Virus record (IMG/VR): IMGVR_UViG_2563366929_000005
Origin: a virus
Taxonomy: Duplodnaviria > Heunggongvirae > Uroviricota > Caudoviricetes
Strand: one strand, 5' to 3'
Length of the DNA: 39,640 nt
Shown: positions 6,219-8,698 of the stretch, in pieces
How positions within the stretch are numbered: position 1 is the stretch's first letter
How the letters are laid out: every line of letters begins with the position of its first letter
Program-made: the position numbers and the translations under genes
The notes under the pieces: model-generated
The model's database searches: none
What the model was told of the DNA's origin: nothing
What the model saw: only the letters and a program-made list of their open reading frames with translations

Positions 6219-6581
6219 TTAATGACCTGCTGCGCGGAGTTTTCCGTCAGGTTCACCGGCAAGAGTCAGTAATTGTCCCTGGTCTTCCTGCAGAATAGTC
6301 AGGCGACCACCGCGATTGACATACATCGGCGTTTCGGTGGTGTCTTCTTCAGAAATTTTCCCGCGGTTAGTCGGGCGAACATATGAGAGTTTGTGTTTGA
6401 TTTTCACACGGTTCTCATCAAACGGTTCGATTTCCAGGTTGAGCGAGACCTTACCTTTGGTTTTCGTGTTCATCACACCGGAAGCGACTTCACTGAGAAC
6501 TGCGCCGATTTTGGTTTCAAATACGCCGCCGTCCAGCTCCCCGATAAATGCCTGCACATCAGTACTGCGTTCGCTAGCCAT
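6219..6581 (-). CDS. YfdP-like early protein
   Basis: 120 aa counted from MASERSTDVQ, with a GAGGAG Shine-Dalgarno just upstream. The N-terminal 62 codons of the track ORF run through structured non-coding leader and are rejected. Confidence 0.7.
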   Translation of the reverse strand: MASERSTDVQAFIGELDGGVFETKIGAVLSEVASGVMNTKTKGKVSLNLEIEPFDENRVKIKHKLSYVRPTNRGKISEEDTTETPMYVNRGGRLTILQEDQGQLLTLAGEPDGKLRAAGH

Positions 6582-6629
6582 TTTGCTGCTCCTCATCATA
6601 TCGACCCTGCAAGGTCGGTTGGTTTCTCC

Positions 6630-6763
6630 ACAAAACAGAGAAGAACACCTGCGGTGGCAGCCGCCCGGATGGATTGGGTTATGAGCCCGTCGTCCGGTGA
6701 TGCTCTTCTCTGTTTTGTAAAAAGAGCGGTACCAGCCGGAAGCAAGTGTACAAACTGGTACCG
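6630..6763 (-). promoter_or_regulatory. Two large RNA stem-loops in the leftward-operon leader (candidate processive-antitermination or leader RNA)
   Basis: Perfect 15-bp inverted repeat ACAAAACAGAGAAGA (6630-6644) / TCTTCTCTGTTTTGT (6704-6718). Perfect 9-bp inverted repeat CGGTACCAG (6727-6735) / CTGGTACCG (6755-6763). A boxA-like CGCTCTTTTTAC (minus strand, 6717-6728) lies between them. Confidence 0.4.
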
Positions 6764-7052
6764 CCAAAGCAGTGGCTGTTGTGGTGACCGGTGCTGATCT
6801 CCGGCTTGCGGTTATTTCAGACTCTCACGGGCGTTTAATTGCCCCGCCGAACAGCTCTTTTCCGCAATAGCTGCAATGTCTTTCGCGCATCAGCCTGCGC
6901 ATTCACCACAACGCTAAGGATTCTCTCTGGTTGAAAATACTTAGCTGTTATGTGCCTGCTTTTAGCCACATCAGGCGAGGTGGACCTGGTTATTCCCCAA
7001 CAACAAGGATTTGGTTATTATGTAACCCTCCCCAACAACGATAAGGATTTAT

Positions 7053-7142
7053 ATGGATCTATGTGTAGATAAGTATGAGGAGAGGCATGTGCCGTTAAGA
7101 CAAAAGCCTCCAGTTCCTCCAAAACCACCCAAGGAAAACTGA
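7053..7142 (+). CDS. Proline-rich micro-ORF A (29 aa): MDLCVDKYEERHVPLRQKPPVPPKPPKEN
   Basis: ATG preceded by TAAGGATTTAT. The stop lies 7 nt before the 2-TM gene. It shares an H-V-P..PPxPP(K)PP core with micro-ORFs B and C. It is below the ORF-track cutoff. Confidence 0.4.
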   Translation: MDLCVDKYEERHVPLRQKPPVPPKPPKEN

Positions 7143-7149
7143 GACTAAT

Positions 7150-7644
7150 ATGACCAGAGACGATTATAAATTTTATGTTCACTACTCTTATGTATTGGAG
7201 AAGATGAATTACACGTTGTTAACTCGCATTGATAAATTAATAACGTTGATGTTAATCGTTCTCGGTTTTTCAGTTTTCGCCCCGTACAGTAATTTATTTA
7301 TTTTCGGTTTGTTTGTTGCCGTACTTTCGGTTCTTCAGTTGGTCTATCAGTTTGGCCAAGAGGCTGGAATGTCTAAAGAGCAAGCGAGGCATTACAAAAG
7401 ACTGCTGATTGAGTCTGATACCCTTCCTGAAGATCAGTTGCAAGCTAGGTATTTAAAAATCCAAGATACTGATAGTAATCCATGGAAATCACTTGAACGA
7501 GCGGCTTTCATTCGGGCCTGTATTTTTGCTGGTGTTCCAACTAAGTACGATTTAACAACCAAAGAAAAATTTATAGCTTGGTGTGCGGGAGATCTACCTC
7601 TAGAGAATGAACTAACGGATATTAATGATGACCAACAAGCATAA
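7150..7644 (+). CDS. Two-TM helical-hairpin membrane protein (SLATT-like topology), candidate superinfection-exclusion or abortive-infection effector
   Basis: 164 aa. TM1 is LITLMLIVLGFSVFA and TM2 is LFIFGLFVAVLSVLQLVY, separated by a 4-aa loop and followed by an amphipathic soluble tail. The gene is AT-rich, on the opposite strand to the early-left operon, and has its own terminator downstream. Confidence 0.7.
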   Translation: MTRDDYKFYVHYSYVLEKMNYTLLTRIDKLITLMLIVLGFSVFAPYSNLFIFGLFVAVLSVLQLVYQFGQEAGMSKEQARHYKRLLIESDTLPEDQLQARYLKIQDTDSNPWKSLERAAFIRACIFAGVPTKYDLTTKEKFIAWCAGDLPLENELTDINDDQQA

Positions 7645-7699
7645 TCCAGTTCACGGACATGTACCTCCGAAGCCGAAACCACCGAAACCGAAGAAATGA
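7625..7699 (+). CDS. Proline-rich micro-ORF B (24 aa): MMTNKHNPVHGHVPPKPKPPKPKK
   Basis: ATG preceded by CGGATATTA. It overlaps the last 20 nt of the 2-TM gene in the +1 frame. The core is HVPPKPKPPKP. Confidence 0.35.
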   Translation: MMTNKHNPVHGHVPPKPKPPKPKK

Positions 7700-7718
7700 G
7701 ACATAATAGGATTGGATA

Positions 7719-7787
7719 ATGAGTCGACCAATAGAGCCTTTTCATATTCCACCTCGTCCCAGGCCACCAGATCCAGGCCCAAAGTGA
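7719..7787 (+). CDS. Proline-rich micro-ORF C (22 aa): MSRPIEPFHIPPRPRPPDPGPK
   Basis: ATG preceded by TAGGATTGGATA (an AGGA Shine-Dalgarno with 7-nt spacing). The core is HIPPRPRPPDP. The terminator hairpin starts 25 nt downstream. Confidence 0.4.
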   Translation: MSRPIEPFHIPPRPRPPDPGPK

Positions 7788-7801
7788 GGGTTACTGATTT
7801 T

Positions 7802-7810
7802 TAAAGAGCG
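7802..7810 (-). promoter_or_regulatory. boxA-like element (CGCTCTTTA) of a candidate nutL
   Basis: The minus strand reads CGCTCTTTAAAAATCAGTAACCCTCACTTTGGGCC about 100 nt downstream of the putative pL. Compare lambda nutR, recalled as CGCTCTTAAAAATTAAGCCCTGAAGAAGGGC. The boxB-like hairpin is weak (3 bp). Confidence 0.4.
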
Positions 7811-7811
7811 A

Positions 7812-7834
7812 AGCGTCCGGTAGGGCGCTTTTTT
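7812..7834 (+). terminator. Intrinsic terminator of the plus-strand accessory mini-operon
   Basis: AGCGTCC-GGTA-GGGCGCT hairpin (one G.U pair) followed by TTTTTT. Confidence 0.65.
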
Positions 7835-7917
7835 GGTACTAACGAATCATCCTGGACTTCATATGCCCCAGGCGGCTACTTCGTGGGCGTCCTGCCTGTT
7901 CGTTATCTTTGATATAA

Positions 7918-7946
7918 AATCTAACTTAACTTAGTTTTAATGGCAA
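7918..7946 (-). promoter_or_regulatory. Putative pL promoter with an overlapping OL operator
   Basis: The minus strand reads TTGCCA-17 nt-TAGATT. The spacer contains ACTAAGTTAAGTTAGA, a 12/16 match to the OR palindrome ACTAAGTAATCTTAGT. Confidence 0.5.
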
Positions 7947-7981
7947 GAGAAAACACCAAACTTTTCTTAGTTCGGTGTTTT
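7945..7981 (-). terminator. Hairpin downstream of the repressor gene (probable cI terminator)
   Basis: AAAACACC (7950-7957) pairs with GGTGTTTT (7974-7981). On the minus strand the stem is followed by a T-rich CTCTT. Confidence 0.5.
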
Positions 7982-8000
7982 GGTTAGAGAAAAGGGGGGG

Positions 8001-8627
8001 CTAGAGTTCGTATTGAACTCCTTTGACTACACCAATGATGAGGCAATTACCATTGATCGGGATGTTGGGGTACCGGGGATTTAATGGCACTAAAAACTTT
8101 TGAGGGCCATCGATAACTAATTTTTTTACTGTGGCTTCGTTTGTTCCATCAAGTCTAGCGATGACTATTTTTCCATGCCGGGGTTCTGCATCAGGATCTA
8201 CAATCACTGTTGCGCCTTCTGGTATTGTTGGGAGGCCGTTAGGGTTAGTCATGGAGTCGCCTTTAACCTCCAATGCAAATGAGTTATCACCAATCTTTAA
8301 TGATGTATCTACCCACTTGTCTACTTCACTAAACACTTCTGCTGTCCTGCACTCAGTAAACTGCCCAGCCTGAACCCACGAGATTACAGGAACTCTGCGC
8401 ATGTTTGTGACGAGTTTGCCTTCAAACTCCGCACCATAAAGAATGTAATCTATTGACGTATTGAAGAACTTCGCTAATTTTGAAAGTGCTTCCCCACCAG
8501 GGACATTGATGTCTTTCTCCCAGTACCCCACAGCAACGTCACTTACTCCACAAAATTTACCCAATTCTTTCTGGGACGTTCTGGTAACTCTTCTCAGAGC
8601 TTTTATACGCTGACCAACCGTTTCCAT
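8001..8627 (-). CDS. cI: CI-like prophage repressor (HTH_XRE N-terminus plus S24 LexA-type autopeptidase C-terminus)
   Basis: 208 aa. The HTH is QKELGKFCGVSDVAVGYWEKD. There is an Ala-Gly cleavage region (VQAGQF), a Ser motif (GDSM) and a Lys motif (TVKKL). The gene is divergent from the cro-like gene. Confidence 0.9.
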   Translation of the reverse strand: METVGQRIKALRRVTRTSQKELGKFCGVSDVAVGYWEKDINVPGGEALSKLAKFFNTSIDYILYGAEFEGKLVTNMRRVPVISWVQAGQFTECRTAEVFSEVDKWVDTSLKIGDNSFALEVKGDSMTNPNGLPTIPEGATVIVDPDAEPRHGKIVIARLDGTNEATVKKLVIDGPQKFLVPLNPRYPNIPINGNCLIIGVVKGVQYEL

Positions 8628-8648: not shown

Positions 8649-8698
8649 ACTAAGTAATCTTAGTTTTTATTGACCTAAGATAGATTGATAATTAACAT
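8649..8698. promoter_or_regulatory. OR operator palindrome plus putative PR promoter
   Basis: A perfect 16-bp inverted repeat ACTAAG-TAAT-CTTAGT lies at 8649-8664. A candidate PR has TTGACC (8670-8675), a 17-nt spacer and TAACAT (8693-8698), upstream of cro. Confidence 0.55.

Follow-up and report, generated by a model that had tools for sequence, protein, structure and literature searches.

Polyproline micropeptides encoded with a two-transmembrane protein in an exchangeable cassette of lambdoid prophages

Between the first leftward gene and the repressor gene of the virus record IMGVR_UViG_2563366929_000005 (IMG/VR; Caudoviricetes), whose 39,640 nucleotides are the window analysed here, lies a plus-strand block whose cargo is four coupled open reading frames (ORFs): a gene for a 164-residue protein with two predicted transmembrane (TM) helices, hereafter 2TM, and three very short proline-rich ORFs, pepU before it and pepD1 and pepD2 at and after its end. 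An earlier note on this DNA, made from the letters alone, saw only the 2TM gene and took its protein to be the whole content of the unit; that gene is present, and three more conserved small ORFs share the unit with it. Comparison of homologous loci shows that, across Enterobacterales prophages, the 2TM gene and the peptide ORFs have been conserved together and on one strand, and it identifies the block as an accessory ('moron') cassette, open to exchange, of a lambdoid prophage of the SfV/SfIV type. The combination of such peptides with a 2TM protein is without a described counterpart, and our full-text searches of the literature found no published description of it; a paper on Salmonella prophage transcriptomes does not cover Fels-2, one of the phages with a related module. 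The parts of the cassette are these:

6952-7052, plus: cassette leader and putative promoter region, kept across loci that have unrelated DNA further upstream
6993-6998, plus: predicted -35-like element, TTCCCC
7016-7021, plus: predicted -10 element, TATTAT, after a 17-nt spacer from TTCCCC
7053-7142, plus: pepU, 29 aa, MDLCVDKYEERHVPLRQKPPVPPKPPKEN, with AAGGA 5 nt before its ATG
7150-7644, plus: 2TM gene, 164 aa, in the ORF list and in RefSeq as WP_001513551.1
7625-7699, plus: pepD1, 24 aa, basic, MMTNKHNPVHGHVPPKPKPPKPKK, sharing 20 nt, in a different frame, with the end of the 2TM ORF
7719-7787, plus: pepD2, 22 aa, MSRPIEPFHIPPRPRPPDPGPK, with AGGA 9 nt before its ATG, ending 22 nt before the terminator stem
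7810-7834, plus: intrinsic terminator, a 9-bp stem (7810-7818/7823-7831) and a U-run to 7834

Conservation and fusion of the micropeptides

The three peptides share a core in which His, an aliphatic residue and Pro lead into polyproline (Pro-x-Pro-Pro): HVPLRQKPPVPPKPP in pepU, HVPPKPKPP in pepD1 and HIPPRPRPP in pepD2. They differ in charge, pepU being near neutral here with an acidic tail in most homologs and pepD strongly basic (pI 10.7). None has a lipobox or signal sequence, and scans of the peptides against Pfam and PHROG returned no family.

Are ORFs this short more than accidents of composition? Our comparison set comprised 66 IMG/VR loci and 3 genome loci whose 2TM relatives are 55-100% identical to the protein of the window, and same-strand proline-rich ORFs stand at matching positions in nearly every one of these 69 loci. 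Over 33 distinct loci, distant ones included, an upstream peptide is found in 31/33, at least one downstream peptide in 26/33 and two or more downstream in 11/33. The upstream type follows the motif ..[YF]EE[RK]H.P....PP.P, usually with an acidic tail; the downstream type occurs as one to three basic copies of the form ..H[VIA]PP.P[RK]PP.P.. (H-phi-P-P-x-P-[RK]-P-P). The pepD2 type, M[ST][KR]PIEPFH[VI]PP.P.PP, recurs in loci L041, L043, L044, L061-L064 and L067, and versions with FH[VI]L.. lie upstream of the gene in Fels-2 and in a Yersinia phage. Upstream peptides of other members of the family, some of them with runs of PPPPP to PPPPPPP in distant homologs, include the following:

Fels-2: MSDSDNFHVLPRPAPAPKPEPGQDKK, with a strong ribosome-binding site
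Yersinia P2-like phage: ..FHILHKPAPPEEKK..
Providencia phage and phage EKP1: annotated ORFs of 38-48 aa with PPPP
L076 (profile E 1e-26): ..DHAPIYRTPPPPPPPRSD
L077 (profile E 1e-16): two [ND]HAP..MPA.PP repeats
L202: two HATRLP..PPP repeats

A regular expression for the motif had 43 matches within 22.7 kb of module windows, every one on the gene strand, and two in the remaining 188 kb of locus DNA read in six frames, an enrichment of about 170-fold at the modules. The 28 distinct DNA sequences for the core draw on all four Pro codons and on both families of Arg codons, yet retain His, Pro and Arg in the encoded peptide; these sequences were chosen by motif, so the recurrence of the ORFs by position is the stronger evidence. 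The comparisons show selection on the peptides at the level of amino acids.

In some loci the parts are joined. The downstream peptide of Pectobacterium P0013 continues the 2TM protein in frame as its C-terminus (..MAKPPVDGHIPPRPRPPAPPKAQN), an arrangement present on six contigs in two prophage contexts, and peptides are fused to one another in L005, L039 and L062 and internally duplicated in L077 and L202. These in-frame joins of 2TM to peptide and of peptide to peptide argue that the peptides are made and that they act with the 2TM protein on the cytoplasmic side; the fusions to 2TM would further imply that the two interact physically.

Expression signals of the cassette

The stop codon of pepU, TGA at 7140-7142, precedes the 2TM start codon by 7 nt (TGA-GACTAAT-ATG), and in about 20 loci the pepU stop falls within the 2TM Shine-Dalgarno sequence itself (TGAGG-N6-ATG). 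This layout is what one would expect of classic termination-reinitiation coupling. Diprolyl motifs make translation dependent on elongation factor P (EF-P), and the three peptides of the window hold at least six of them in 75 codons (PPV, PPK and PPK in pepU), so all three would need EF-P to be translated.

The leader has the consensus GTGCCTG..CCACATCAGGC..GGTGGATCC..TATTCCCCAACAACAAGGATT..TAnnnT..CCCCAACAAC..AAGGA..ATG. Its hexamer at the -10 position takes the forms TAATCT, TATTAT, TATAAT, TAGTCT, TATTCT and TAATAT across loci and is always TAnnnT; because this invariant -10 signature lies 17 nt after TTCCCC, we place the putative cassette promoter at 6993-7021, with a predicted start near 7028. 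The leader also holds an inverted repeat, GCCTG (6954-6958) and CAGGC (6972-6976), in which two compensatory changes are seen (L067, L069), and two copies of the direct repeat CCCCAACAAC..AAGGATT, one at 6995-7011 and one at 7033-7049, of which the latter provides the Shine-Dalgarno sequence of pepU; 6906-6922 is also listed as a position of this repeat. The two leader repeats vary together, CAGTCAGGAAT with AGTCATAAGGA in L020 and L045 and CAGCA in both repeats in L060, which suggests either a single factor that reads both or gene conversion between them. After the first repeat (AAGGATTT) an ATG-TAA start-stop mini-ORF at 7020-7025 overlaps the predicted -10 region; it is confined to this variant of the leader, and other loci have TAATCTGG at that position.

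RNAalifold applied to 19 leaders gave no consensus RNA structure, and a riboswitch or other structured-RNA reading of the leader was dropped on that result; an Rfam search of 6400-8100 had no match. We also set aside the AAGGAUU repeats as CsrA sites, since a transcript started from the predicted -10 would contain just one of them.

At the other end the unit closes with the clean intrinsic terminator that the earlier note had put at 7812-7834. Folding places it at 7810-7834, with -14.2 kcal/mol on the plus strand; the complementary strand folds weakly (-7.6 kcal/mol) and lacks a U-run, which makes the terminator unidirectional. It was identified by folding, and a pattern scan did not list it. 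All the features that the earlier note described are found at or close to the positions it gave, but the extent it proposed for the unit, 6994-7834, falls short on the left, where the leader begins at about 6952.

One slot, several cargos

The phages SfIV and PhiR29_1 are homologous to the window over 6500-7047 and over 7796-7904, and what lies between is unrelated cargo. The terminator belongs to the right flank that both share, and Pectobacterium has conserved it too. When IMG/VR was scanned for the leader core, at least 120 stretches were found; in the 80 of these that were analysed the leader precedes at least five unrelated types of cargo:

Type 1: the micropeptide-2TM module
Type 2: an SfIV p36-like protein, about 145 aa
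Type 3: a protein with a coiled coil and a double zinc ribbon, about 160 aa
Type 4: a 78-aa protein
Type 5: a secreted LprI-like protein, about 170 aa (E = 0.006)

Loci with other cargos under the same leader and terminator, in the slot that is 7053-7790 of the window, are L079, L085, L080, L130 and L121. A leader and terminator common to at least five unrelated cargos in one slot mark a true exchange cassette. Turnover is visible within one host species as well: part of 6900-7900 occurs in 1,927 of 5,426 complete E. coli genomes, and this cargo in just 51. The suggestion that the block might be a presence/absence cassette, made in the earlier note, is thereby borne out, the flanks matching in SfIV and PhiR29_1 and the cargo differing.

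The module runs counter to its neighbours in every context that we examined, the hallmark of an independently expressed accessory gene. It lies between the early-left genes and the repressor in lambdoid prophages, inside the early lytic operon in P2-like phages, and between the lysis genes and Q in phage EKP1.

Immunity-region context

The neighbouring features on the minus strand are:

6219-6581, minus: yfdP-like gene, the first leftward gene
7946-7918, minus: pL-like promoter, TTGCCA-17-TAGATT, from a promoter scan, convergent to the cassette
7950-7981, minus: cI terminator hairpin, folding at -15.6 kcal/mol
8001-8627, minus: repressor gene, LexA-family

RefSeq has the same order in an E. 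coli prophage, where the identical coding sequence (WP_001513551.1, hypothetical) stands between yfdP(-) and the LexA-family repressor(-), followed by cro. Base composition also sets the block off, with an AT-rich dip across 7000-7750 (GC 0.36-0.41, against 0.50-0.55 at 6400-7000), so that the AT-rich plus-strand block described between OL/pL and the first leftward gene is found in the GC profile, the ORF and the RefSeq neighbours alike. The pL/OL proposed at 7918-7946 on the minus strand coincides with the promoter-like site, which is overlapped by the palindrome CTAACTTAACTTAG (7921-7934); this resembles CTAAGTAATCTTAG of the cI-cro interval (8650-8663). The pL-like site and an operator-like palindrome resembling that of cI-cro make a leftward early promoter facing the plus-strand unit credible. 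The data support, as the earlier note had it, a discrete plus-strand transcription unit that adjoins the repressor and is convergent to pL.

A boxA-like decamer, CGCTCTTTAA(AAA), lies at 7801-7810 on the minus strand, some 110 nt past the pL-like promoter in the leftward direction. The decamer overlaps the A-tract on the 5' side of the cassette's terminator and is the sole exact copy in the window; boxA-like strings occur at the matching place in the Pectobacterium locus L200 and in the distant L077. A lambda-like nutL on the minus strand was considered and dropped, since the count of boxA-like decamers is within chance, and neither a convincing boxB nor a counterpart to nutR nor an ORF resembling N was found. 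The stretch of about 370 bp from the first leftward gene to the leader (6581-6950) holds no convincing ORF; SfIV-like phages match it at 84% identity, and it includes a perfect 10-bp inverted repeat, GCGGTACCAG/CTGGTACCGC, at 6726-6764.

The 2TM protein and its family

The earlier note gave the protein a tight TM hairpin at residues 30-44 and 49-66. Kyte-Doolittle hydropathy agrees, with two hydrophobic segments centred at residues 30-40 and 49-62, and so does an AlphaFold2 (AF2) model (pLDDT 75) in which helices 3-42 and 48-88 form a long hairpin, broken at residues 43-47, followed by four short helices. The predicted topology is N-in/C-in, with TM helices at about 30-44 and 49-67 and a small cytoplasmic helical domain.

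The note had also named frame-breaking indels in homologous loci as a sign that would speak against this ORF; in 24/24 homologous loci the sense frame is open, unlike the antisense frames. We rejected the antisense ORFs annotated across the gene in Fels-2 and in the Yersinia phage vB_YenM_42.18, because they are not conserved. The GenBank record of Fels-2 draws minus-strand hypothetical genes across the 2TM homolog (L002 2914-3318 and 3407-3640), and that of vB_YenM_42.18 does so too (L003 2797-3462). Both records miss the plus-strand 2TM gene and the peptide upstream of it, probably a mis-annotation, with the GenBank genes of this locus put on the wrong strand.

Close homologs of the protein number 72, and at 50% identity the family falls into 228 clusters; every member is a standalone protein of about 150-190 aa. 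Relatives turn up often in Klebsiella, Salmonella, Enterobacter and plant pathogens, and the exact 164-aa sequence is on at least 1,000 contigs. Database records uniformly label the protein hypothetical and almost never annotate its partner genes. A Salmonella subfamily (L206/L207 2501-2977) lies beside sopE2 and a metallophosphatase gene, occurs in S. bongori as well and appears to sit in a prophage remnant.

No Pfam, NCBIfam or PADLOC model matched the 2TM protein or its relatives, scans extended to 120 deep members of the family brought up no informative family either, and the PHROG matches (6315/23697) are families annotated as of unknown function. The likeness to RexB and SieB that the earlier note saw did not survive these searches: RexB, SieB and SieA have no match in Pfam at E up to 10, PHROG offers only families annotated as of unknown function, and PADLOC has no match either. 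The holin families to which the note had pointed fare no better, the sole match among holins, antiholins and spanins being a PHROG Rz-like spanin at E = 0.42, and the 2TM gene lies in the immunity region, away from the lysis genes.

Discussion

What might such a module do? Our leading reading, held tentatively and at a little less than an even chance, is that it encodes a membrane effector, expressed in the lysogen and serving to exclude superinfecting phages or abort their infection, whose production and activity are tied to the polyproline micropeptides. Several lines of evidence point this way: the position and orientation of the slot, the turnover of the cassette, a 2TM hairpin with weak affinity to SLATT proteins, the fusions, and the complementary charges of pepU and pepD. 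The defence role itself we infer from position. In such a mechanism the unit would be transcribed in the lysogen while pL is repressed, and translation of pepU would deliver ribosomes to the 2TM start, since the stop codon of pepU is placed at the 2TM ribosome-binding site or within it. The 2TM protein would be an inner-membrane protein with a cytoplasmic helical domain, in an oligomeric assembly whose cytoplasmic face may be bound by the free cytoplasmic peptides, presumably in a polyproline-II-type conformation. Peptide binding could then gate the effector, a SLATT-like membrane protein, and with it the exclusion or abortion of superinfecting phages; upon induction convergent transcription from pL would silence the unit.

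Lambda rexAB and lambda/P22 sieB are lysogen-expressed exclusion genes in the repressor-proximal slot or pL region, and RexB is an inner-membrane channel protein. The module resembles RexAB and SieB in its slot adjoining cI and OL/pL, in its probable lysogen expression and in its membrane location. It differs in having its own promoter and terminator, convergent to pL, and in the lack of any sequence or family match; moreover, RexB has four TM helices and a soluble sensor, RexA, whereas the 2TM unit has two TM helices and micropeptides. SLATT proteins likewise combine a small 2TM helical hairpin with flanking cytoplasmic helices and occur on mobile elements, and SLATT-5 is the required toxic effector of the defence system DRT10/UG17 (bioRxiv 10.64898/2026.04.29.721553). 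Here, however, the partners are polyproline micropeptides rather than a nucleotide cyclase, TIR or reverse transcriptase; we saw no fused or neighbouring SMODS, SLOG, TIR or reverse transcriptase, the neighbours being phage early genes and the micropeptides.

How far does the likeness to SLATT go? The earlier note's comparison holds for topology, two adjacent TM helices within a helical domain being present by hydropathy and in the AF2 model, and it gains little beyond that. Among 120 diverse family members one matches SLATT_4 (E = 0.041), and two homologs are named SLATT in UniProt. In a Foldseek search of BFVD, five of the eight top matches, the first-ranked included, are named SLATT (giant viruses) and are non-significant, with probabilities of 0.84-0.97 but E of 0.2-0.7 and TM-scores of 0.45-0.56; sequence and fold searches of the PDB found generic helical hairpins only. 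'SLATT-like' is thus a reasonable description of the modelled topology, and membership in the family is not demonstrated.

A number of observations weigh against the exclusion reading. No SLATT_1-6/DUF4231-clan profile matched the 2TM protein or its 16 relatives in the Pfam/NCBIfam scans (E up to 10), and no match in a deep profile search bears a SLATT annotation. PADLOC-DB v2, at E up to 10, has no defence family that matches the 2TM protein, and the other cargos of the slot have no PADLOC match; with neither the protein nor its sister cargos recognised there, the argument from a 'defence hotspot' is positional only. A consensus promoter scan had no match at 6993-7021, where the -35 is weak. 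In the AF2 model of the natural fusion the proline-rich tail reaches only pLDDT 64, and docking is not demonstrated. The Salmonella subfamily (158 aa, 27% identity, more than 1,500 member sequences) is without proline-rich ORFs, as are the very distant members L203 and L204, so the 2TM protein can persist alone. A strict toxin/antidote pair is argued against by these stably kept peptide-less homologs, and a labile-antidote design would endanger the prophage's own induction.

Could the proline-rich ORFs instead act only in cis? They would then be nascent-chain sensors, in which a pause at diprolyl or acidic stretches, dependent on EF-P, Pro-tRNA or Mg2+, sets the amount of 2TM, and the level of a toxin would track the state of the translation machinery. 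We consider this unlikely, though it accounts well for several features: pepU lies directly upstream with its stop in or beside the 2TM ribosome-binding site; diprolyl motifs are dense in the window and grow to the long proline runs of the distant homologs; and conservation lies N-terminal of the proline run (YEERH, PIEPFH), as in arrest peptides. The leader ORFs mgtL and mgtP, short and rich in Pro with Asp/Glu, likewise stand just upstream of a membrane-protein gene, a placement shared with RAPP-type arrest peptides; they act by transcription attenuation or exposure of the ribosome-binding site through refolding of the mRNA, whereas no RNA structure is conserved here that could be remodelled, and our module also has peptide copies downstream of the gene. 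Another precedent is toiL, an upstream ORF that responds to the stalling of ribosomes and controls topAI-yjhQ, a prophage toxin operon (PMC12121999). It too is a short ORF immediately before a prophage toxin-type gene, but it is not polyproline, senses antibiotics and works through regulation involving Rho, and it has neither downstream paralogous peptides nor a fusion to the regulated protein, both of which occur in the module. Those two traits tell against a sensor in cis: one to three copies lie downstream of the gene, where a leader regulates nothing, and peptides are fused to the 2TM C-terminus and to one another. The opposite charges of pepU and pepD do not fit it either.

The roles could also be reversed, the micropeptides being the effectors, analogues of proline-rich antimicrobial peptides (PrAMPs) that bind the ribosome exit tunnel or DnaK, and 2TM an anchor, exporter or immunity factor. 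We think this quite improbable. PrAMPs such as oncocin, metalnikowin and apidaecin are, like our peptides, short (18-30 residues) and rich in Pro, Arg and Lys; they have a PRP or PRPRPP core after an aromatic-aliphatic pair. The conserved core H-[VI]-P-P-[KR]-P-R-P-P, and above all FHIPPRPRPP of pepD2, in which PRPRPP follows an aromatic/His-aliphatic pair, recalls YLPRPRPP of oncocin and YIPQPRPP of apidaecin; the corresponding stretch of pepD1 is GHVPPKPKPP. One study reports that the functional core of PrAMPs, an essential one, is a PRP motif with an aromatic residue beside it, that Lys can take the place of the central Arg, and that PrAMPs inhibit E. coli when expressed intracellularly (PMC10862732). 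The likeness is nonetheless short and of low complexity, one extra residue separates the aromatic position from PRP, and His stands where the antimicrobial peptides have an important Tyr. PrAMPs are animal host-defence peptides imported via SbmA, whereas the peptides here are phage-encoded and predicted to be cytoplasmic; there is no exporter, leader or immunity gene, peptides of the pepU type have an acidic C-terminus and no PRP, and constitutive production in the lysogen would be self-toxic. A role outside defence, in lysogenic conversion or as a housekeeping membrane function (envelope, stress physiology, or the timing of lysis and lysogeny), has a low probability in our view, if a better one than the PrAMP reading. 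It would suit the fact that neither the module nor the alternative cargos match a known defence family, that one of those cargos is a secreted LprI-like protein, and that a peptide-less homolog is fixed beside the virulence gene sopE2 in Salmonella; it sits poorly with a position and orientation that mirror classical exclusion genes, with a rapid turnover of cassettes at the slot, as is typical of conflict genes, and with a sole, weak fold affinity that points to SLATT effectors. What we regard as very improbable is the reading from which the analysis set out, in which one gene encodes a RexB/SieB-type exclusion protein with two TM helices and the small ORFs are there by chance. In its favour, the 164-aa ORF is the sole gene that RefSeq annotates in the block. 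Against it stand the peptides, conserved, strand-specific and enriched as they are, and the fact that neither Pfam nor PHROG gave a match among exclusion families, RexB and SieB included; the comparative data already contradict it.

To return to exclusion by a membrane effector, we speculate, with only an outside chance of being right, that elements of these readings combine. The peptides may belong to an unrecognised class of ribosome-acting phage peptides, either PrAMP-like tunnel binders or EF-P arrest sequences, that open a SLATT-like pore, in which case the module would be a translation-sensing switch for abortive infection.

In conclusion, the portable pair of leader and terminator marks a slot for cargo exchange in which further small accessory genes could be sought. 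Should the module exclude phages, it would represent a defence architecture with polyproline peptides of 20-30 residues as integral parts, and it would raise the question of whether phages read or hit the ribosome through EF-P-dependent or PrAMP-like peptides.

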